NCBI GenBank assembly: GCA_027031765.1
Contig: JALVPN010000165.1
Span: forward strand, 30,001 to 62,000
Length of the DNA stretch: 32,000 nt
Direction: 5' to 3'
DNA from: Promethearchaeota archaeon
Lineage (GTDB): Archaea; Asgardarchaeota; Thorarchaeia; Thorarchaeales; Thorarchaeaceae
In this document: positions 1 to 29,376 of the stretch, piece by piece
Layout of the letters: every line of letters begins with the position of its first letter
Position numbering within the stretch: position 1 is the first letter of the stretch
Notes under the pieces: generated by a model
Seen by the model: only the letters and a program-made list of their open reading frames with translations
Databases searched by the model: none
Told to the model about the DNA's origin: nothing
Program-made: the position numbers and the translations under genes

Positions 1-70
1 CGTCCACTCCCGCCGTAGTCCAGTCGGCCCAGTCCACCCCGTGGTCTTGAGAGGTGCAGGAGGGGGTGCC

Positions 71-751
71 CTAGGACCCGTCACTCTCTGGGGCCCTTCC
101 TGCACCATACACACAGAGGTCGTTCAAGAAGCAGGAGCTACAGTGTGGTGACCTGGCCCTGCAGGTGCTCCTACCGTGCCGGACAAGGTTATGGTTCAGG
201 TGGTATATGCACCTCTCGTCCAGTATCGACTCCAGCAGCGTATGCGCCCGCTCCCTGCTGGTGCCCTCGGGGATGAGCCCCAGTCGTCTGGTCACCCTCC
301 ACACATGCGTATCAACAGGGAGTGCTGGCCTGCCGAAAGAGAACAGCAGTACGATTGCTGCGGTCTTTGGCCCGACGCCATGGAGTGACATCAGCCAGCG
401 CCGTGCCTCCTGCAGCGGCATCTCTCGCAGGTGCTCCAGCTCCAGTCCGCCAGTCCGTTCTCTAATCTCACGGAGCGCACGTCTTATCCTCTTGGCCTTG
501 ACCGCGCTCAGCCCCCCACTGCTTATTGTCGTGGCGAGCTGTGCCTCGTCGGCATCCGCCACATCCTCCCAGTCTGGGTACCGTGCTCTCAGTCTATCAT
601 ATGCCCTCCGGGCCAAGACATCAGTGGTGTTCTGACTGAGGATGGTAAGTACCAGCTCGGCCACCGGCTCTAGTCTGCGCGTCGTTATTGTCTCGCCGTA
701 GTGTTCCCGTAGTCGTCTGCAGACCTCCTGTGCAGTTGACTTGACGTTCAT
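71..751 (-). CDS. nth: Endonuclease III (Nth/MutY HhH-GPD DNA glycosylase)
   Basis: HhH motif LMSLHGVGPKTA, catalytic PVDTHV, C-terminal 4Fe-4S motif C-x6-C-x2-C-x5-C (CRARSPHCSSCFLNDLC). Start taken at ATG 751 (MNVKS); ATG 808 is possible. The listed 847 start overlaps the divergent flavodoxin gene. Confidence 0.92.
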   Translation of the reverse strand: MNVKSTAQEVCRRLREHYGETITTRRLEPVAELVLTILSQNTTDVLARRAYDRLRARYPDWEDVADADEAQLATTISSGGLSAVKAKRIRRALREIRERTGGLELEHLREMPLQEARRWLMSLHGVGPKTAAIVLLFSFGRPALPVDTHVWRVTRRLGLIPEGTSRERAHTLLESILDERCIYHLNHNLVRHGRSTCRARSPHCSSCFLNDLCVYGAGRAPESDGS

Positions 752-19418: not shown

Positions 19419-20660
19419 ATGGATTTCCAAGAGTCAGAGGAAGAAAAGATGTTCCGCGAGGCCGTACGCGAGTTCGCCCAGCGATACGTTGCACCGGCCT
19501 GGCAGGAATACGACCGCTCACATGAGATCCCGCGCGACCTGATCAAGAAGATGGCGGACATGCAACTGTGGGCCCCTACTGTGTCCGAGGAGTACGGCGG
19601 CGCCGGAATCTCCATGACCATGGCCTGTATTGCCGCGGAGGAGCTCGCTAGGGCCGACCTCTCCATCGCACTACCGGTCATGTACCTCGTTGAGGCCTCC
19701 TGGGCGTTAATATTCGACCTGTACGGCACTCATGAGGCCAAGAGTGAGATACTCCCCAGAGTCACCAAGGGCGACCTCTTCTTCGGCATCGCCACCACCG
19801 AGCCCACCGGTGGCTCCGACCTCGTCAACTCGACCAAGACAACAATCAAGCCAAAGGGTGACAACTTTGTCGTGAACGGCGAGAAGGTCTACATCAGTGG
19901 CGTCCGGGAGTCTGAGAAGTACGGCGGTGTCTACTGGACACTCGCAAAGGAAGACCCCAAGGGCGACCACAAGGCATTCACAGCCTTCATCCTGCCCCTC
20001 AACCTGGGCGACGGCCTGCACCCCGGCATCACCACCACGCTCTTCGAGGACATGGGACGCATGGGGGTCTCAACAGGTGGCTTCAATATCGAGGATGTGG
20101 AAATCCCCCCGCACTACATAATCGGTGAGCGCAACCGCGGCTTCTACTATGCAATGGAAGGCTTCTCAGCTGCAAGGGTGCTCATTGGTGCGACGTGCCT
20201 TGGCTCCGCAGAGGGCGCCTTCCAGATTGGCGTCGACTACGTCAAGCAGCGGAAGCAGTTCGGCAGACCACTCGCGTCCTTCGAGGGGATCATGTTCGAG
20301 GCTGTCCAGTCATGGATGGCCCTTGAGGCCGACAAGAACCTCGTGTACAAGGCTGCCTGGATGATGGACCAGCACTACCGTGAGAAGAACCCCAGTATCT
20401 CCAAACTCGACATCGCAAAGTACACCGCAGCAGCCAAGTACAGGACACCGCACGATGCCCTCGATATCATCACACGGGCCATGACCTGGCACGGTGCCTT
20501 CGGCTATACGAAGGAGTGCCCACTTGAGGCCGCATACCGCGGCGTCCGCTCCTACACCATCGGGGCCGAGGGCGGTGCTCACATCCAGCTCATTGTCATG
20601 GGCCGCGAGATTTTCGGCAAAGAATACCTGCCCTATCGACAGAAGGGGCAGTTCGACTAG
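19419..20660 (+). CDS. Acyl-CoA dehydrogenase
   Basis: EEEKMFREAVREFA, TTEPTGGSD, VVNGEKVYIS, RKQFGRPL, HGAFGY and YTIGAEG motifs. SD GGTGAGGT before ATG 19419. Confidence 0.95.
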   Translation: MDFQESEEEKMFREAVREFAQRYVAPAWQEYDRSHEIPRDLIKKMADMQLWAPTVSEEYGGAGISMTMACIAAEELARADLSIALPVMYLVEASWALIFDLYGTHEAKSEILPRVTKGDLFFGIATTEPTGGSDLVNSTKTTIKPKGDNFVVNGEKVYISGVRESEKYGGVYWTLAKEDPKGDHKAFTAFILPLNLGDGLHPGITTTLFEDMGRMGVSTGGFNIEDVEIPPHYIIGERNRGFYYAMEGFSAARVLIGATCLGSAEGAFQIGVDYVKQRKQFGRPLASFEGIMFEAVQSWMALEADKNLVYKAAWMMDQHYREKNPSISKLDIAKYTAAAKYRTPHDALDIITRAMTWHGAFGYTKECPLEAAYRGVRSYTIGAEGGAHIQLIVMGREIFGKEYLPYRQKGQFD

Positions 20661-20674
20661 TTCCAGAACGGCCA

Positions 20675-20696
20675 GAGAGAGGACTACTCCTCTCTC
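20675..20696 (+). terminator. 9-bp hairpin after the acyl-CoA dehydrogenase stop
   Basis: GAGAGAGGA-ctac-TCCTCTCTC is a perfect stem followed by a pyrimidine-rich tract, at the point where GC content drops. Confidence 0.4.
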
Positions 20697-21378
20697 CTCC
20701 CGTTTCTTGTAGATTGCGTCTGCTACTTGGTTACGCGCACGGCGGAACAACATTCCAGGAGTGAACAGTTTTGTGGACGGCTCTCTCACTACGCTGCCAC
20801 TAATGTCCCTGCCCGCGAATGCTGTGTACAAGGTGAACCTCCCACTCAATGCTCCCGAATTCTTGGGCTCACCTCCTTGTGAATCCACAAGATGAACAAG
20901 AGTTCTCTTGGTGTACATTCTCTAGACTTGGCAACCTGAAACAATGGACTATGTTCGATTTCAAGGCTGAGTCTGCGTACTTCATGTACACACCCCATTG
21001 GTAGGATTCGATATAATGCCGGGCAATTCAGGGTCTACTGGAAGAAGAACTGGTTGAGCGAGTATATGGTGTCTGAAATGAGGCTTGGGCGTTGCGTCTG
21101 CCCAGACTTCGACATGCAATCCGCCCGTCGTTTCCCCAACTAAGACAAGTAGCCGATATCAACCGCACCAATTCGGAAAAGAATGATTGGGCTAGGAGCC
21201 GCACATGTAGACCCAACCGAAATCCGAACTCAGTTTTCTGAGACTTGGCCTTTTGGATGATGGTAGATGTGCGTTTCACTGTTTTTGAGCAGACGAAAGT
21301 CCTAAATCTGCTTGCGGAACAGGCCCACTGTGCTCCAATCATGAATTTGCACCCCAATATGGAGGGGATTCTCCTACA

Positions 21379-22986
21379 ATGAGAATTCGCGGAATCGAGG
21401 TATCTAATTTCAGGAGTCTCGTGCACTTCGCAATGAAGGATATCGGGAATTTCAACATTCTCGTCGGCCGGAACGGTGCTGGGAAATCCAACATTCTGGA
21501 TGCAATTGATGTCTTTCTCACAAGTCTGAAACGATATCCGCAGTTTCAAGATGTGCCAGACAGTTGCTGGACAAGGCAGAGTGATTCATCTGAAATTTCG
21601 TTCTCATTTGAACTTGAGTTCACCAATGAAGAGATTGAGGTTCCTACTGACGCTGGGGAAAACAATGGTTCACCATCAACTCATAGCGTGGTCATTTCTA
21701 GAACCTTGCGTCGAGAACAAAAAGAGTGGAGTCTTCGAACCCTCAGCATCAACGACCAGCCGCTGGTGAAGGATTACCAAGAGCTTGATAGTAGCGATTC
21801 TGCTACAGTAGCGGAAGTCCTAAAGCAGATTGCTGGTGCAGTTTCGAAATCATACAGGCTACTTGGGTTCTCTAGGTTTGTCGCGCCTCAAGCCTCGACG
21901 CCCGGACAACGAGTCCCGGCGATTCCCGCGAACGTTATCAAAGGGATCATCTCACTGGAAACTGCGGAAACCTCTGAAGCAGACAATCAGTCATACGAGT
22001 TGGAAGAGCAGTTCGAAAGAATGAGTGGTGATACGCTTGCGGTTACTGCCACCTCCATTCGCGTTCGAGAGGGACAAACAAGGATTCCTCTTGAACTTCT
22101 CGGGGTCGGGATTCAGACCACTTTGGGTATGGTACACGACCTCCTGAATCCAACTGGAGTAATTCTCATTGAAGAACCTGAGATTCACCTGCATGCCGGT
22201 CTTCAACGACAGGTTCTTGAAAGACTGAAGGAAGTTAGTGAGAGGTGTCAAGTTTTCATTACAACGCACTCAACAATATTCTTGGATGAATGCGAATACG
22301 GCTCACTCTGGCATGTCAGAAAGACCGGTGGAGTCACGACCGCAACCCGTGTGGAAGGGCTCGATGACTTGAGAAGCATTGTCCTTGGCCTTGGCATACG
22401 GCCTAGTGATGTACTAGCGGCGAACAGCATACTACTCGTTGAAGGCCTCACCGAGAAGATTGTAATCCCCTTTTGGGCGCGCCTTGTGGGGAAGAGGTTT
22501 GAGCCTCCAAAGGTAAACATTGTTCAAATGGGTGGTGTTGGAACGGGACGCTACCATCTTCATCTTTGGAAACAGATGGTAAGTGCCTTCAAGATTCCAT
22601 TTTTCATACTGCTGGACGGTGACGAGGCTGCTAGACGCGAAGCAAAGAAGTTGGAAGAAGAACATGGCGTAAATCCAAGGATGATTTACACTCTGAAGAA
22701 GGAATCAATCGAAGACTACTATCCTGATGACTTGACTATTGAGTGTCTTGAGAACATGCTTTCGCTTCCCCCAGACCAACAGCCGAGCTTGCACGAAGAG
22801 CTACCTTCCTCAGGCAGAGCACGGCACATTGACAAGTTTATCAAGGGGCACAAGCCCAAATCTGGGCCGAACTGGAAAGTACAACTGGCCAAATGTATGG
22901 TAGAAAAGATGAGGGCTGAGCACTTGGATGATGAAATCAGGGAACTGATACTACAAATTGATGATGTACTTGGCCAGTCATCGTAA
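21379..22986 (+). CDS. OLD-family ATP-dependent nuclease (ABC-type ATPase + TOPRIM)
   Basis: NFRSL, Walker A GRNGAGKS, Walker B ILIEEPEIHLH, QVFITTHS, TOPRIM LLVEGLTE and LLDGD. Confidence 0.9.
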   Translation: MRIRGIEVSNFRSLVHFAMKDIGNFNILVGRNGAGKSNILDAIDVFLTSLKRYPQFQDVPDSCWTRQSDSSEISFSFELEFTNEEIEVPTDAGENNGSPSTHSVVISRTLRREQKEWSLRTLSINDQPLVKDYQELDSSDSATVAEVLKQIAGAVSKSYRLLGFSRFVAPQASTPGQRVPAIPANVIKGIISLETAETSEADNQSYELEEQFERMSGDTLAVTATSIRVREGQTRIPLELLGVGIQTTLGMVHDLLNPTGVILIEEPEIHLHAGLQRQVLERLKEVSERCQVFITTHSTIFLDECEYGSLWHVRKTGGVTTATRVEGLDDLRSIVLGLGIRPSDVLAANSILLVEGLTEKIVIPFWARLVGKRFEPPKVNIVQMGGVGTGRYHLHLWKQMVSAFKIPFFILLDGDEAARREAKKLEEEHGVNPRMIYTLKKESIEDYYPDDLTIECLENMLSLPPDQQPSLHEELPSSGRARHIDKFIKGHKPKSGPNWKVQLAKCMVEKMRAEHLDDEIRELILQIDDVLGQSS

Positions 22987-23343
22987 CCACTGGGTTTCCT
23001 ACAATCTATGCCAAGAGTCGAACCGGATTCCAACGGCCTCCACTCGGTTCAAATGTTAGGGCACGCGCGTATCAACTTGGGAGAGCACCGACCACCAAGT
23101 TCGGTGTTGAGTGTTGCAAAGAGAACACAGTTTGGGACGGTACAAGCCTACTCAAACCTACTCGTACCGGGTTCCTAAATGTCCAGGCCTAGGCGTGGAG
23201 TCCGTCCGAACCAGTGAACAGCTGTTTCCACTTGTTGTGTTCTGTCGTTGTCCGGCTCATTATGCGATTGCCAATGCAGCCTAGCGGCGGCCCTGAGATT
23301 CCCCGACGCACGGCCCCATTGCCTTAGGTGGATTGGTTCTGTT

Positions 23344-23361
23344 GGGCACATGCATGTGCCC
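23344..23361. repeat. Perfect 18-bp palindrome GGGCACATGCATGTGCCC
   Basis: Seen directly, between the convergent OLD and Schlafen genes. Function unknown. Confidence 0.85.
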
Positions 23362-23495
23362 TTGCCCTCTTGGTCATTCTACGGAGAAACATGCATCAAC
23401 ACTTGCTACCCGGTCGCACTTCTGGTTTTGTTCATTGTTCCCAGCTGAACGGAACAAGACCATTCATGGTGGAGTTTCAGAGCCATAGCAGTGAA

Positions 23496-25253
23496 TCACT
23501 TCCAGCGCTTCCTTGCGTACTCAACAATCTTCCTTAGGTCATCGATGCCAGTCGTTCTAGCCCCTTCTCTGATATACAGAATCTTCTTCTGTTTCTTCAG
23601 CATCAAGACCGGTTCATCTGCCGGTCTTACGTCAACACGACAGATTTCTTTGTCGTCAACTTGTGGAAACGTGGTGCGGAAAAACTGTCGGAACATACCT
23701 TGGACTTGGCTGTTGAACTTCTGAGTCAAGGATCTGTCAAAGGTATCGGAGCTTGGTTCGTGATGAAAGCAGGAGTAGTCTCGCTCTAGGCCAAGTATCT
23801 CCCCGTCATTCCCGACTCCGATAAGGAGTACACCGCCATCCGAGTTCATGAATGCGCAGATTGTCTTTATCACGGGGTCGTATAATTCACTATTCTTCCC
23901 TTGGAGATTGTAGTCCCACAACATCGATGACTTGAACTCGATGAACTGGGACTCCCCCATCTCTATCAACTCCTCGACAGTGGCCCGTTGGACTCTCTCA
24001 AGTGATGGTGCCCTTGGCCTTGTGTAGAGGTACAGTGCCGCGCATAGCACGGCAAGTGCCACGCTCCACTCGATGACGCGGTAGACAACCATTTGCAGCC
24101 TGGTTGTGGGCAAGAATGACTTGGGCACTCTGATAATGTATCCGTTCGTCGTTCCAAGATATAGATGGCCACGATCGTATCCCGGAATGAGGATTGACTC
24201 AAGAACTTCAGGATACCGGCCCATTGTGAGCTCTTCCCTGCTAATCATTGGAGTGACTGACTGGGCATTGTCATCCAAGTCGATGTATGCAAGTCCCAAT
24301 GCTGTGACCACATACAACCGCTTGAGGTCTACATCGATGTCAATAGCGTTCACAACTCTCGATGGCAATCCGTCATCACTCGTCAGGCGAGAACGAACTA
24401 ACGTTGCGCTAGTTCCGTTCTCGTCGAAGATGAATAGTCCCTCATTTGTCCCTATGTAGATTCTATGGGTGAGTTGGTAGTAGTCTATGCAACTGACACT
24501 TAGAGGGTTCCCTACATCGTCTTGGATATGGCTGAAGTTCACGCCGGTTCTCAGATTGAAGAACGCAAAACCCCTGCCTGTGCCAGCAAGAAGGCAGTCA
24601 CCACGCACTTTGAGCGACCGTACATTGTTTGAGGGCAGACCATTCTCAGTTGTGATGTTTCGGGTTTGATACGTGGATGGAGCGTACTCAACAACCCCGA
24701 TCTGCTCGCTTCCAAGGTACAATACGGTGTCTGATCCATTACGGAATGTTTCAATGTCCCGAAACTCTACGTCCTCTCCTATGTTTGGGATTCGGATGGG
24801 ATCGAATACTACTCGCTGGTTCTCATAGGACCAGTGCATCCAATAGGCTCCTCCATCTGGTCCATCCGTGACCACGTAGCTTAGCCATCTATCCCATGTT
24901 GTTCCCATATCGTATACTCTGCTGCCACCTGTTGCACTGTCAACTGAATGAGGCCCAGATACAGAGTTGTTAGAGAGGTTGACATAGTAGAGACCGCCTA
25001 TTCCGTTGAAGGCTATCATAGACTCGGCAGCATCGAGGAATATCATTGGCCTGATGCTGTACCCCGGGAAACCATTATCTACATGTGTCCACTGCAGGTC
25101 CTCAGAGGCTGGCTGAACAAGCCATCGGTCAACACTGGCCGTAGCAGGGAATACCACCATGAATACTATCACAAGCCTGAGGAATCGCTTGTCAGACCTT
25201 AGTTCTCCGAGTTTCGCAAACACTCCTCCTTGTGCTTTTGTTCTGCCCATCAT
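23496..25253 (-). CDS. Receptor-like protein: signal/anchor, extracellular beta-propeller, single TM, cytoplasmic Schlafen (AlbA_2) domain
   Basis: N-terminal hydrophobic segment; Reg_prop-like repeats ITTENGLPSNNVRSL and LTSDDGLPSRVVNAI; TM at ~24023-24092; AlbA_2 motifs GESQFIEFKSS and TICAFMNSDGGVLLIGV. ATG 25253 overlaps the upstream stop (ATGA). Confidence 0.87.
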   Translation of the reverse strand: MMGRTKAQGGVFAKLGELRSDKRFLRLVIVFMVVFPATASVDRWLVQPASEDLQWTHVDNGFPGYSIRPMIFLDAAESMIAFNGIGGLYYVNLSNNSVSGPHSVDSATGGSRVYDMGTTWDRWLSYVVTDGPDGGAYWMHWSYENQRVVFDPIRIPNIGEDVEFRDIETFRNGSDTVLYLGSEQIGVVEYAPSTYQTRNITTENGLPSNNVRSLKVRGDCLLAGTGRGFAFFNLRTGVNFSHIQDDVGNPLSVSCIDYYQLTHRIYIGTNEGLFIFDENGTSATLVRSRLTSDDGLPSRVVNAIDIDVDLKRLYVVTALGLAYIDLDDNAQSVTPMISREELTMGRYPEVLESILIPGYDRGHLYLGTTNGYIIRVPKSFLPTTRLQMVVYRVIEWSVALAVLCAALYLYTRPRAPSLERVQRATVEELIEMGESQFIEFKSSMLWDYNLQGKNSELYDPVIKTICAFMNSDGGVLLIGVGNDGEILGLERDYSCFHHEPSSDTFDRSLTQKFNSQVQGMFRQFFRTTFPQVDDKEICRVDVRPADEPVLMLKKQKKILYIREGARTTGIDDLRKIVEYARKRWK

Positions 25254-26152
25254 ACAGCCCCCAGAAACCATAGAACAGCATAGGTTGCATTTATCGTGGC
25301 ATGTAGAGCCCATGGTTGTGTCAGGTTCTCAGACAAAAGCCACACCATACCCAGCAGAATCCCTAGCCCAAACCTCGTTATGAACGCCGCAAGAACCGAA
25401 CCTACCGGATCGAAGATATTACCAACGTACTGGGCGTTAGTGAACAGATGACAAACCGCAAAGAGAGAAGAAGCTAGCAACAGCCCTATGGGCTTGCTCC
25501 GGAATCTCTCGGACAGGCGCTGTTGGACTATAGCCCTGTTGACCAGCTCCTCGACAAATCCAATAATGACCCCTCCGTAGACCACTAGTCCCATGAGCCC
25601 GACTAATCGCTCAGGGCTGGCAAGGGTTGGGAATTGGTCAATGACCGGCAACAATCGAATTCCAAAGGATATCATGATTACTACCAGCAGGAAGATAGGC
25701 AGGCTACTGGTCCTCCAAGGTTCTCCACCTCGGATTCCCAGTGATTCCAATGAGTAGCCAAAACCACGCCAGAAGATCACGGCAATCGCCAGACCTGTAA
25801 GGAGAATGGCAATGCTGGCAGAAAGGATGTCAAGGCTTGGAAAGAAACTGAAGAACCACCATCCAACATCGAGATAGATCACTAAAGCGAGTACTGCCTC
25901 TTCAATAGGGTTTCTAGACAGCTTCTCAGGTCGCTTCAGGTGCTGGCTGTGACTCCACAGAAGTGCGCTGCATCCAATGACATTCAATGCCCCAAGCACG
26001 ACAATGTATGATTCAGAATACATGATTGCATATGCCAAACTCGAGGATGTCACCAGAGCCGCCAAGAGAATGATCGCCTTGATATCGCGAGGGTTCAGTT
26101 GAGTTTGTTGCTCCTCTGCCACCTTCGTCACCCCTGCTGGGTGACCCCCCAT
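25250..26152 (-). CDS. CPBP family (CAAX/Rce1/Abi) intramembrane glutamic metalloprotease
   Basis: All catalytic motifs intact: EELVNR (EExxxR), FAVCH (FxxxH), HATIN (HxxxN); multi-TM. GTG 26122, with a GGTGA SD, is an alternative start. Confidence 0.88.
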   Translation of the reverse strand: MGGHPAGVTKVAEEQQTQLNPRDIKAIILLAALVTSSSLAYAIMYSESYIVVLGALNVIGCSALLWSHSQHLKRPEKLSRNPIEEAVLALVIYLDVGWWFFSFFPSLDILSASIAILLTGLAIAVIFWRGFGYSLESLGIRGGEPWRTSSLPIFLLVVIMISFGIRLLPVIDQFPTLASPERLVGLMGLVVYGGVIIGFVEELVNRAIVQQRLSERFRSKPIGLLLASSLFAVCHLFTNAQYVGNIFDPVGSVLAAFITRFGLGILLGMVWLLSENLTQPWALHATINATYAVLWFLGAV

Positions 26153-26243
26153 CTCCCCAAAGAAAAAGCTTGTGCGTCTGAAGCAGCACCATACAGCTCT
26201 CGAGTTGGTGGTCTGGCGAGTCTTCCCGTGCAAAGGACTCAAA

Positions 26244-26277
26244 TACTAAGGCAGCTTAGTACTAATCATGATTAGTA
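26244..26277. promoter_or_regulatory. Tandem palindromic operator TACTAA-N6-TTAGTA x2
   Basis: TACTAAGGCAGCTTAGTA (26244-26261) and the perfect palindrome TACTAATCATGATTAGTA (26260-26277), which is centred on the ATPase ATG. Confidence 0.7.
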
Positions 26278-27629
26278 AATTCATCGACCGTGACGCCGAG
26301 CTCTCTCTGCTTGAAAAGGAGTGGAGGGGGCATGGTGGGAAGCTCTTGGTCCTGTACGGTCGAAGGCGGGTTGGCAAGACCAGACTCCTAGCTGAGTTCG
26401 TCCAAGGAAAGGATGGCGTGTTCTATATTGCGAGCGACTCATCACCGCAAGTCCAGATTGAAGAGCTCAAGACGAGAGTTGCGGACTTCCTCAACGATGC
26501 GTTGCTGAGAGACCTTGAACTCAAGAACTGGGAGCAGTTCTTTGAGTATCTTACGAGGAATCTGCCGTCCAAGAGGTTCTATCTCATACTGGATGAGTTC
26601 TCCTATCTTGTCAAGAGCGATCGGACGATTATCAGTGTTTTGCAAAGGGTATGGGACAGAGTCTTGTCAAATTCCAAGGTCTTCTTGGTACTGTGTGGAT
26701 CGGTAATGGGCCTAATGAGGGATGAGGTGCTCTCCTCGGCATCTCCTCTGTATGGTCGGCGAACAAGGGACATCCTACTGAGGGACTTGCCATTCAAGCA
26801 CGCAAGAGAGTTTGTTTCCTTCCCGTTTGCGGAGGCAATGCAGCTGTACTTTGCAGTTGGCGGCGTACCGGAGTATCTGCAGAAGGCATCAGAGTACCAC
26901 AGCATGAATGAGTTTCTCAGCCGGGAGTTCTTCAGCACCACGGGATACTTCTATCGCGAGCCGTATTTCATAGTGTCACAGGAGTTCAGGGAGCTGAGAA
27001 TCTACTTCTCGATTCTCAATGCTATTGCCACCGGGAGAACACGCCCGACCGACATAGCCAACTTTGTGGGGATTAACGCCCGAAGCGTATATCCGTACCT
27101 GGAGGGGCTCATTCGGATGGACTTTGTCAAGCGGGAGATACCCGTTCTTGGGAGCCCCAAGCGAGGCGTCTACCGGATCAAGGACTCCCTCCTTGACTTT
27201 TGGTTCGGCTTTGTCTTTGGCCATCGGGATGAGATTGAGCGGGGCTCACTGAACCTAGACAACCTGGATCTGTCAGCCTACTATGGGAGGCGATTCGAGG
27301 AGTTCGTGAGGAGTGAGGTCGTCCACCTGCTGTTCAACTACACCAAGATGGGACGATGGTGGCATCGTGGTGAGGAGATCGACATTGTTGCGGTGAACGA
27401 CTCTGCCAATGAGATACTCTTCTGTGAGTGCAAGTGGAGCGACCTCAAGAAGAGGGAGGCCGAGCAACTCATTCAGGGCTTGCAGCAAAAGGCGAGGCTC
27501 GTGAGCTGGGGCACGGAATCAAGGGTGGAGAGATTTGGCGTGGTCGCACGTAGAGTGCGGGGAAAGGAGGGCCTCCGAAGTCAGGGCTATGTCGTGTACG
27601 ATCTGCAGGACATCAAGAGTGTGCTGTAA
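26268..27629 (+). CDS. Archaeal AAA ATPase (ATPase_2) with wHTH and DUF234 / PD-(D/E)xK-like C-terminal domain
   Basis: FIDRDAEL, Walker A YGRRRVGKT, Walker B ILDEFSY, LCGS, SPLYGRRT, GGVPEYL, FWFGFV, and GRWW..GEEIDIVA..ILFCECKW nuclease-like motif. Confidence 0.92.
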   Translation: MISKFIDRDAELSLLEKEWRGHGGKLLVLYGRRRVGKTRLLAEFVQGKDGVFYIASDSSPQVQIEELKTRVADFLNDALLRDLELKNWEQFFEYLTRNLPSKRFYLILDEFSYLVKSDRTIISVLQRVWDRVLSNSKVFLVLCGSVMGLMRDEVLSSASPLYGRRTRDILLRDLPFKHAREFVSFPFAEAMQLYFAVGGVPEYLQKASEYHSMNEFLSREFFSTTGYFYREPYFIVSQEFRELRIYFSILNAIATGRTRPTDIANFVGINARSVYPYLEGLIRMDFVKREIPVLGSPKRGVYRIKDSLLDFWFGFVFGHRDEIERGSLNLDNLDLSAYYGRRFEEFVRSEVVHLLFNYTKMGRWWHRGEEIDIVAVNDSANEILFCECKWSDLKKREAEQLIQGLQQKARLVSWGTESRVERFGVVARRVRGKEGLRSQGYVVYDLQDIKSVL

Positions 27630-28851
27630 CCATTGACCCATCACGTTTCGGGAGGATGCGTTTCACGCATGGCCTATGCTCCCCGCTATCCGCAAGAACA
27701 TACAGTATCACCCCCTATCCTCACTGTTGAGCTGCACAACACGCATTGGGGCAAGTGACCTCAGTCCACATGGCGGTGAGATTGAGAATCGGGAGCTACG
27801 CCTCCAGAATTGTTTCTGAGAGTCGTGGCAAGTCCTTCAACTTTGACAAGCGTTGAATTGCCGAGTCCGACCTCCACACAGTTGAAGTGGAACACAATGG
27901 TCAGTCTTGGTATCTGCAGGTATGTCTTCCGGTGGGCTCGTCGCTTGATGGATATGTTCGTCTTCTCAAGCCACCTATCACTACTGGTCCAATCCAACAG
28001 ATTCTGACGAAGTCTATGAAGGTCAATCCAGTGAGTGGTTCACGAACACTCTACATTTGCGAGATTCGAGTCTGCAGCACAGATGCTCAAGGCAGAGTCC
28101 ACTGTCACCAAGTGAAGTTCAGTGAGCCGTATCCCCCCACTTTGAGCCTCCTGTTGCCGGCTATGGTACAACATGGGGATGGTTCACCCTGCCGCTACTG
28201 ACGTGTGGTCTTCCCGCGTGTCCAGAAAACCAGTATGCGGCCACACAGTACACACTAGGTGGGGTCACCGCCTGCGACGCGCGACACGGGCCATAGGCCC
28301 CAGATATACCCGCTCACTCCACCCGGCCACCGGTGTGACCGTCCTCCGTGCCTCCAACAAACATATCCAACACCACTACCATGGTCACACCTCCTGCAAG
28401 ACCGTTGTCCATAATACGCTCCACTACCATGTTAAGACTCTCGTACGGGGGCTCGTGGGCGTCCACTGGGGCTGGTAGGCCAGAACCGACACGGATGCGC
28501 AACAGGGGGCGAAGCACAGACAGAAGAGCACTCAGACCAAGTGCCACGTGGGCGCTCTGCCTCGCCCTTGCTACTGTGTGACCACACAGGCGGGTAGATG
28601 GTGGATTGGTGTCAAGTGGCTGTTTCACCTCGGATCCCGGACTGGATTGTCGAGTGGAGCGCCCCCAGTGGGCCCCTCCCTGTGCGCCCATCCGCTCGCC
28701 CAGGCCGAGGCCGGGCTCTCGCCCTCACAGACACGCAAGCCAGTCATGTATGTCGCCCAGATGAGCAGCAGCGCACCATACTCCTCCGCACCGATAACCC
28801 GCAACCGGTCGCCCGCACTCCGCAGCACCCGAACCGCCCCCTCCAGCACCG

Positions 28852-29164
28852 CTACCGCACCGGCATGGTCACCACTCTCCCACTGACCGGGTCGTGTGCC
28901 AGCCTCCCAAGCCTCACCTCGAACCGCTTCAGTTTTCTCAGAGTCTCCATGAAACGCTCGTGATTGCAGAATCTTCTACGCTCCTGTTCTGTTGGCGTTT
29001 CACCCTGGTATGGCATGCAATCGTAAACGTATGTCCTCAGACGTTCAAAGCCTTCACACACCGCTTCAGAGAACTTCACGAAATCGATACGCGGCTCATT
29101 GAAACAGTGCTTGAGAACCTTCGCAAAAAAACCCCAAATCTATCATGACTGCTGCCCGGTCCAA
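28852..29164 (-). pseudogene. Frameshifted, truncated NYN (LabA/DUF88, PIN-fold) ribonuclease
   Basis: TTG start gives LDRAAVMIDLGFF. Removing one T from the T7 run (plus-strand A at 29125-29131) continues AKVLKHCFNEPRIDF...LRTYVYDCMPYQ...RFEVRLGRLA. The downstream QKGVD and GDSDF motifs are absent. Confidence 0.75.
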
Positions 29165-29376
29165 CCGCTGTTGTCCTCTAATGATATCTGACCGCCGCCC
29201 TCTCGAACGACAGCACGAATTTTCTGTGGCGCGTTGTTGGCGCCCTGACTTAAAGGTCATTGCTGCTGAGTATCTGACGAATTCATTGCTGACACACATG
29301 GCTCCGGACTGTGCTGCTGACGGTTGTCCATCATGTCAGTCACAGGGGCAGTCTGCATCATGTCTGGCTGTGGGAA

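Follow-up and report, generated by a model that had tools for sequence, protein, structure and literature searches.

In a 32,000-nucleotide stretch of contig JALVPN010000165.1, from a thorarchaeal genome (the whole of this stretch is called the window below), a gene on the minus strand encodes a receptor-like protein that would join an extracellular sensor to a cytoplasmic nuclease-type domain. The order of its parts, namely a signal peptide or anchor, a seven-bladed Reg_prop-type beta-propeller, one transmembrane (TM) helix and a cytoplasmic AlbA_2/Schlafen domain, is supported by an AlphaFold2 (AF2) model and a Pfam match to AlbA_2, in agreement with a first-pass annotation made from the letters alone. 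Absent from that annotation was the most conserved contextual feature of the receptor, a CPBP-family intramembrane protease encoded beside it. We consider the chance about even that the two proteins form a signal-gated membrane Schlafen nuclease with the CPBP protein as its gate, acting by cleavage or by binding.

The receptor-like gene was confirmed at 23496-25253. The coordinates given earlier stand, with the frame to be read on the minus strand; the plus strand is riddled with stops over the same interval. All of the sequence features that had been listed were found: the hydrophobic N-terminus, two GLPS motifs, a TM segment followed by RPR, six N-x-S/T sequons, ESQFIEFK and GVGND. The open reading frame (ORF) extends over 23496..25313 (-) and encodes 605 amino acids, or 585 from the ATG at 25253. 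Since this ATG overlaps the TGA of the CPBP gene as ATGA, and homologues begin at the equivalent point, it is the likely translation start. A longer start at 25313 (-) was discarded because it would run into the 3' end of the CPBP coding sequence and no homologue has the extension. The 20 codons concerned (25254-25313, -) are Cys-rich, with six Cys in 20 residues, and are probably not translated. The public gene call (P0002; 584 amino acids) starts one codon downstream of the 25253 ATG, and receptor residue numbers follow it here.

The AF2 model of the receptor, built on a 70-sequence alignment, had a mean predicted local distance difference test score of 91 and a predicted template modelling score of 0.71. 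Against seven-bladed propellers the propeller model scored a VIA Z of about 29. The top Foldseek ranks for the model were 4a2l/4a2m and 3ott/3va6, which are the Bacteroides hybrid two-component system sensors BT4663/BT4673 (E about 1e-13 to 1e-11), and rows 1-8 from the ESM-Atlas were Reg_prop clusters, 96-100% of whose members carry PF07494 (template modelling score up to 0.79). An Atlas search with the whole receptor gave no usable match. Pfam Reg_prop (PF07494) did not match the window protein even at E up to 10, and it scores the relatives P0025, P0026 and P0109 below threshold; the propeller-family profile reaches the PF07494-bearing proteins P0173-P0175. The kinship with Reg_prop that had been claimed is therefore upheld at the level of modelled structure and of profiles, and 'Reg_prop-type' is to be read as a label of that kind.

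Several observations bear on how the protein sits in the membrane. All six sequons, like both GLPS motifs, fall within the propeller, between the two hydrophobic segments, and none follows the second. The same bias is seen across 14 family members, with 77 sequons in 4628 ecto residues vs 8 in 2514 cytoplasmic residues (binomial p = 7e-8). Both hydrophobic segments are flanked by basic residues on their cytoplasmic side, a basic TRPR directly following the TM helix. Most telling are the nearest AlbA_2 relatives from outside the family, many of which carry an SBP_bac_3 or dCache-like ecto-domain in the same plan; SBP_bac_3 is obligately extracytoplasmic. Since the positive-inside rule, the family-wide sequon bias and the replacement of the propeller by SBP_bac_3 in relatives all agree, the proposed topology, with the propeller outside and AlbA_2 inside, appears well supported, and the propeller is probably N-glycosylated.

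The N-terminal segment itself would be a signal anchor or else a Sec-type signal peptide whose end is Pro...A-x-A-like. In the window's subgroup it resembles a cleavable signal peptide (a short hydrophobic core, Pro, then small residues), whereas in a second subgroup of the propeller family it resembles a true anchor, so that the mature receptor may be either single-pass or a two-TM hairpin. At the other end of the propeller, a juxtamembrane (I/V/L)P motif precedes the TM helix, and its Pro is invariant in 16 relatives. The linker of about 23 residues between the TM helix and AlbA_2 is a candidate cleavage or regulatory segment.

The C-terminal domain, claimed to be of the AlbA_2/Schlafen type, gave the sole Pfam match on the receptor (PF04326, SLFN_AlbA_2; E 2.4e-18, 67.2 bits vs a cut-off of 25.3, residues 454-588 of the 605-residue form). 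A profile built from 45 domains of its clade matches SLFN14, SLFN11 and rat SLFN13 over their catalytic lobe (E 2.7e-11 to 7e-10), and SLFN5, SLFN12 and CbCash (9ylu, E 0.004) are also among its PDB matches. The assignment rests on these profiles, the Foldseek and VIA-align matches of the full model being filled by propellers. Of the motif ESQFIEFK, which had been picked out as catalytic, 65 of 66 aligned relatives share E433, E438 and K440. The E-x4-E-x-K spacing is that of the CbCash triad E17/D22/K24, which is a pattern match, CbCash not being aligned over this stretch. That triad was established by mutation and structure, and the single 163-residue Schlafen domain of CbCash cuts tRNA (PMC13462974).

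The third acidic site is less regular. Where 5yd0 has the second D of its GVDD, 61 of the 66 relatives (about 92%) have Asp, but the window protein has Asn, directly followed by an Asp; P0022 and P0171 also have Asn. The caveat raised at first reading was thus justified, for the Asn aligns to the catalytic Asp of rat SLFN13, which we take to be D248; the equivalent Asp is required for the activity of SLFN13 and SLFN11. The retention of catalytic acids among homologues had been set as a test of the assignment, and they are retained at the frequencies just given. Since E-x4-E-x-K is kept across the clade, whose profile covers the SLFN11/13/14 catalytic lobe, the AlbA_2 domain of the propeller receptors is predicted to be catalytically competent.

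The gene directly upstream of the receptor gene, starting at ATG 26152, encodes the CPBP partner (PF02517; E 7.4e-14, 52.2 bits vs a cut-off of 22.4). Its EExxxR, FxxxH and HxxxN motifs are invariant in eight partner CPBPs that are only 25-40% identical to that of the window. In Rce1 the same residues make up the catalytic dyad, a stabilising salt bridge and the oxyanion hole, as summarised in PMC13692083. A CPBP gene is the immediate, like-oriented neighbour of the receptor gene in 12 of the 13 informative loci (the window; L001/L002; the P0005 contig; L004; L009; L010; G383:C19; G348:C67; G322:C228; L024; L025; L026), some of which may derive from closely related genomes; the L005 contig was too short to score and was left out of the 13. 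In L010 the CPBP gene is downstream of the receptor gene. The only propeller-TM-AlbA_2 locus of the 13 with no CPBP neighbour is L006, which encodes P0025. As called, P0025 has no clear N-terminal hydrophobic segment and may be mis-started or decaying. Because the genomes hold only 5-10 CPBP matches each in about 3 Mb, chance adjacency of CPBP and receptor is negligible. Co-transcription and translational coupling of the two genes are predicted, with strong support from their arrangement.

The EE motif of the protease lies, by the positive-inside rule, at the cytoplasmic end of a TM helix, beside a K/R-rich loop. Such a placement is compatible with cleavage of the receptor TM helix close to its cytoplasmic side, for which it is weak evidence. 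A complex prediction of the CPBP protein with the juxtamembrane/TM segment of the receptor, run without controls, gave no verdict (score 0.00) and counts neither for nor against an association.

Two relatives show which part of the receptor the protease accompanies. P0021 (L009:770-2452) and P0026 (L010:5001-6770) keep the propeller, the juxtamembrane (I/V/L)P motif, the TM helix and the CPBP neighbour, and AlbA_2 is absent from both. Their C-termini have PLD-like and MIT_C look-alikes in the Atlas and an H-x-R motif; neither gave a Pfam or PDB sequence match, and what they share is a weak H-x-R-x-L-I motif. From the modelled look-alikes, the swapped domains are possibly PLD-like. Since the CPBP gene persists where the cytoplasmic domain has been replaced, it is strongly supported that the pairing belongs to the propeller-TM chassis and not to the effector. 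Conflict systems typically combine an unchanging sensor with exchangeable enzymatic effectors, and the exchange seen here on one sensor chassis speaks for an effector at the C-terminus and against a regulator that reads DNA.

These results suggest a model whereby the tethered, monomeric nuclease would be inactive until an extracellular or envelope cue at the propeller altered the relationship between receptor and CPBP protein. Most likely the CPBP protein would then cut the receptor in or beside its TM helix; alternatively, it would relax an inhibitory hold on the receptor. In either case, self-association of the Schlafen domains could yield an active nuclease that would cut tRNA or other RNA and arrest growth, as a defence or stress response. 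We infer that the nuclease is off when tethered and on after a signal. Activation by assembly, which experiments have established as the rule for Schlafen nucleases, is carried over to the receptor by analogy: CbCash is activated as filaments (PMC13462974), SLFN-pAgo likewise by assembly, and SLFN11 forms dimers, per the introduction of PMC13462974. The IRE1-like clustering, cue identity, tRNA cleavage and dormancy of the first-pass annotation are likewise matters of inference.

Protease gating is made plausible by a partner that is translationally coupled and catalytically intact. There is also a precedent in PrsW, a distant CPBP relative: it makes the site-1 cut in RsiW, an anti-sigma factor that spans the membrane once, and thereby initiates the release of a cytoplasmic effector (PMC3482391). 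Because the intact CPBP is near-obligate and because of this precedent, we favour a protease-gated switch over clustering alone, and regard it as at least as likely. Within the CPBP-gated reading, cleavage seems somewhat likelier than scaffolding.

Several points weigh against this reading. Receptor cleavage and RNase activity are both predictions. The third acid is Asn in 3 of 12 propeller-family members, the window copy included, so that this copy may be attenuated, or else the position may be tolerant in the subfamily. Neither the receptor nor the CPBP protein matches any PADLOC 2.0 model, whereas the neighbouring GajA/Old-like and PDC-S27-like genes do. The one SBP_bac_3-TM-AlbA_2 locus inspected (L007) has no CPBP neighbour and nor has L006, so an AlbA_2 output can work without CPBP. 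Small nutrients are the usual ligands of SBP_bac_3 and dCache sensors, a point more in keeping with ordinary signalling than with immunity. Finally, the conserved motifs are no proof of proteolysis, since the CPBP proteins Abx1 and CflP regulate membrane sensors without catalytic residues (PMC13692083).

Among the alternatives, the one that survives best, which we still think unlikely, is that a ligand dimerises or clusters the intact receptor, so that the juxtaposed Schlafen domains become an RNase while the CPBP protein is a maturation or housekeeping accessory. The structures closest to the receptor are Reg_prop sensors of Bacteroides hybrid kinases, which signal via dimers, and both L007 and P0025 do without a CPBP neighbour. 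The activation of Schlafen nucleases by assembly (the CbCash filament, PMC13462974; SLFN-pAgo) would also suit this view. However, a CPBP protein with an intact site in 12 of 13 informative loci, kept when the effector is swapped, is hard to explain unless it has a part in signalling.

Less probable than clustering is a CPBP scaffold on the TM region that holds the receptor on or off with no cleavage at all. Abx1 and CflP bind the kinase CovS and regulate it independently of catalytic residues, and several S. aureus CPBPs are reported to be inactive scaffolds (PMC13692083). In the eight partners, though, every catalytic residue is invariant, including the first Glu that CflP has lost, and such invariance among proteins only 25-40% identical to the window CPBP argues for selection on catalysis.

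We give still less credence to a membrane-tethered, one-component regulator of gene expression whose AlbA_2 domain would bind DNA or RNA uncut, possibly after an ATF6-like release, in response to an extracellular nutrient or glycan. Some relatives are indeed named 'RNA-binding domain-containing protein' or 'predicted transcriptional regulator ... shared with Schlafen', the window copy has Asn at the third acid, and sister architectures use the nutrient-type sensors SBP_bac_3 and dCache. Yet a binding role would sit poorly with E, E and K in 65/66 clade members and the third Asp in 61/66, and the Pfam scan found no helix-turn-helix or other DNA-reading domain. The alternative effectors look PLD-like, i.e. 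enzymatic, which is a lead only, and the nearest soluble relatives show fusions to DUF262 and to type I methylase modules from restriction systems. Last, the variable C-terminal domains on one N-terminal chassis recall polymorphic toxins, as do the nuclease toxin domains linked to peptidases of the PrsW family, itself distantly related to CPBP (PMC3482391). The CPBP protein would then release and export the nuclease against competitors, in the way put forward for PrsW-linked toxins, but this is very improbable, as the topology places the C-terminal domain in the producer's own cytoplasm, the protease is a separate gene and not an N-terminal fusion, and no conserved small downstream gene of the immunity or antitoxin kind was found in nine loci.

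Comparison with known systems helps to separate what is familiar in the CPBP-receptor pair from what is new. CbCash likewise has one AlbA_2/Schlafen domain, an E-x4-(E/D)-x-K motif and a dedicated sensor part, and the Cash nuclease, which is active as filaments, cuts tRNA once ligand binding drives its assembly (PMC13462974). However, CbCash belongs to type III CRISPR loci and senses intracellular cyclic tetra-adenylate (cA4) through its Csx15 domain (PMC13462974), whereas the sensor of the window receptor would be extracellular. A Csx15/Rossmann-like cyclic oligoadenylate sensor, by which Cash proteins are defined, was not found in the receptor, whose other parts are the propeller and TM segments only. 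The 2026 survey of prokaryotic Schlafens by Weickert, Liu and Strecker describes Cash and seven other clusters, none of them as membrane-bound (PMC13462974); these eight, unlike the membrane-spanning receptor, are soluble, with C-terminal domains of the pAgo, methylase, ATPase or NACHT type or of unknown kind, and an intramembrane protease partner is a feature of the receptor and not of the Cash cluster set. In mammalian SLFN11/13/14 the catalytic C-lobe aligns with the clade profile over ES..EFK and GVDD. Those proteins are soluble, with two AlbA_2-like lobes per chain plus helicase/linker domains; the receptor has one lobe, so self-association would be needed.

On the sensor side, the Bacteroides proteins BT4663/BT4673 (4a2l, 3ott, 3va6) share GLPS-type blades that are extracytoplasmic and precede a TM segment. 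They have two propellers, a Y_Y_Y domain and a histidine kinase output, whereas the window receptor has one propeller, no Y_Y_Y, a nuclease-type output and an archaeal host. In PrsW-RsiW and Abx1/CflP-CovS a CPBP-superfamily protein is likewise functionally linked to a signalling protein that spans the membrane; in no case is a nuclease controlled, and Abx1 and CflP are non-catalytic. To our knowledge, the protease-family gene and the sensor gene of these bacterial systems do not form a translationally coupled pair. The likeness to IRE1 and RNase L is one of logic only: sensor and RNase lie on opposite sides, and self-association is the activating step. There is no homology: IRE1 and RNase L have a kinase or pseudokinase and a KEN RNase, neither of which gave a Pfam match on the receptor, and they have no dedicated protease partner.

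The receptor also appears to belong to a larger set of membrane-anchored AlbA_2 proteins. AlbA_2 relatives number roughly 5,900. About 59 of the 136 nearest 50%-identity representatives of the AlbA_2 domain that we surveyed carry TM segments ahead of it. Fifteen of these place a signal or TM segment, an ecto-domain of 230-330 residues and a TM helix before AlbA_2; in 29 there is a closely spaced pair of TM helices, as in a 305-member bPH_2 + AlbA_2 Atlas cluster that is labelled bacterial, and the remaining 15 have other arrangements. An SBP_bac_3 ecto-domain is present in P0029, P0040 and P0044 and a dCache-like one in P0011 and P0143; P0030 and about 28 others have the two TM helices with bPH_2. 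The architecture search beyond Asgard archaea that the first-pass annotation had proposed thus gave a divided answer: receptors with a propeller keep to a single Asgard family, but the sensor-TM-AlbA_2 plan is a broader class that appears to extend beyond Asgard archaea. In the literature searched, with incomplete coverage, we found nothing combining CPBP with Schlafen and nothing on membrane or periplasmic-sensor Schlafens, and the membrane-anchored sensor AlbA_2 class is apparently undescribed.

Full-length relatives of the receptor are rare, about a dozen among 5.8 billion clustered proteins, and in a sample of 400 genomes of the phylum the propeller module occurs only in the window's own family, patchily, in 4 of 86 genomes. 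Homologues are named by NCBI as Candidatus Thorarchaeota, with one Lokiarchaeota, as expected from the Asgard-like host first proposed, and a homologous contig carries a TBP gene. The window DNA is present in one hydrothermal vent metagenome, probably its sample of origin; no RNA run was listed for it.

The cassette lies in a low-GC stretch of the window (about 20700-29200; GC fraction about 0.50-0.51 vs 0.575 elsewhere), together with an OLD gene, an ATPase gene and several ORFs with no family match. The OLD-like nuclease gene is convergent with the receptor gene. On the other side, the PDC-S27-like ATPase gene is divergent from the CPBP-receptor operon and is not kept beside the cassette in other genomes. 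At 26244-26277 in this divergent promoter region an 18-bp perfect palindrome, TACTAATCATGATTAGTA, is centred on the ATPase start codon and overlaps a second TACTAA-N6-TTAGTA box; these two TACTAA...TTAGTA palindromes, which lie partly in the intergenic region and extend to 26277, form a candidate operator. No tRNA gene or obvious integration site was found in the window, integrases not having been specifically sought. In a second genome (G383, L011:3706-7636) the cassette is directly upstream of a Hachiman-like pair (PDC-M23A, E 2e-40; PDC-M23B/HamB helicase, E 8e-257), and at the other loci the neighbours were uninformative. Together, the patchy presence, the low-GC stretch and the defence-gene neighbours in two genomes suggest a defence role for the module. 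Two further minus-strand ORFs of the window, at 21028-21549 (173 amino acids) and 20310-20918 (202 amino acids), gave no Pfam or PADLOC match; the former, which may be spurious, shares about 170 bases with the beginning of the OLD gene.

Table 1. Coordinates of the cassette, its parts and its neighbours in the window, and residue ranges of the receptor model
Feature	Position	Strand	Basis
Receptor-like gene	23496..25253	-	ORF list, translation, ATGA overlap, homologue starts
Basic and hydrophobic N-terminal segment	25116..25190	-	Hydropathy, model helix 21-45, translation
Extracellular seven-bladed Reg_prop-type beta-propeller (predicted)	24111..25103	-	AF2 model, VIA, Foldseek, Atlas, sequons
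TM helix	24024..24107	-	Hydropathy, model helix 382-409, invariant Pro
Cytoplasmic linker, about 23 aa, TM to AlbA_2	23955..24023	-	Model helices 417-422 and 425-431; translation
Cytoplasmic AlbA_2/Schlafen-type nuclease domain (predicted)	23502..23954	-	Pfam PF04326, PDB profile matches
ESQFIEFK, E-x4-E-x-K catalytic motif	23931-23954	-	Translation
GVGND, third-acid site	23805-23819	-	Aligned to GVDD of rat SLFN13, 5yd0
CPBP/Rce1-like glutamic-type intramembrane protease, 300 aa	25250..26152	-	Pfam PF02517, motifs
CPBP motif EExxxR	25535-25552	-	Translation
CPBP motif FxxxH, His	25448-25450	-	Translation
CPBP motif HxxxN	25289-25303	-	Translation
Divergent intergenic region upstream of CPBP-receptor operon	26153..26267	.	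Sequence read
OLD-family ATPase-TOPRIM nuclease, stand-alone (AAA_15/AAA_21 + OLD-like TOPRIM)	21379-22986	+	Best PADLOC: GajA, Old
ATPase_2 + winged helix-turn-helix + DUF234 protein	26268-27629	+	PADLOC candidate PDC-S27, E 5.6e-43
Model: N-terminal helix	residues 21-45		AF2 model
Model: seven four-stranded blades	residues about 50-380		AF2 model
Model: TM helix	residues 382-409		AF2 model
Model: short linker	residues 410-432		AF2 model
Model: alpha/beta domain	residues 433-583		AF2 model

In its widest form, the CPBP-gated reading would describe an Asgard cell-surface receptor system in which an extracellular ligand (a virus, a glycan or a neighbouring cell) triggers CPBP-dependent intramembrane proteolysis that frees a Schlafen tRNase, or a PLD-like enzyme in the sister forms, into the cytoplasm, and which belongs to a large unrecognised class of receptors with AlbA_2 output. 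We put this forward tentatively, and think it unlikely to hold in every part. What is of a known kind is the prokaryotic Schlafen effector; what is new is the arrangement for sensing and gating it. Being a conserved pair of two genes with clear catalytic residues, the system lends itself to direct tests, and it draws attention to a broad bacterial set of SBP-, Cache- and PH-linked membrane AlbA_2 proteins. The Asgard setting is of interest for the history of Schlafens and of receptor signalling, the data being silent on the ancestry of the eukaryotic proteins.

The roles of Schlafens in prokaryotic immunity have only recently been shown, and the triggers described are intracellular: cyclic oligoadenylate, guide RNA, or an ATPase/NACHT module. 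If the model is correct, an extracellular sensor joined to a Schlafen domain would couple events at the cell surface directly to RNA cleavage. The CPBP partner points to a proteolytic switch with no described counterpart among nuclease-based systems, and regulated intramembrane proteolysis of the Notch/ATF6 type would, if this is true, be joined in these archaea to a Schlafen immune effector.

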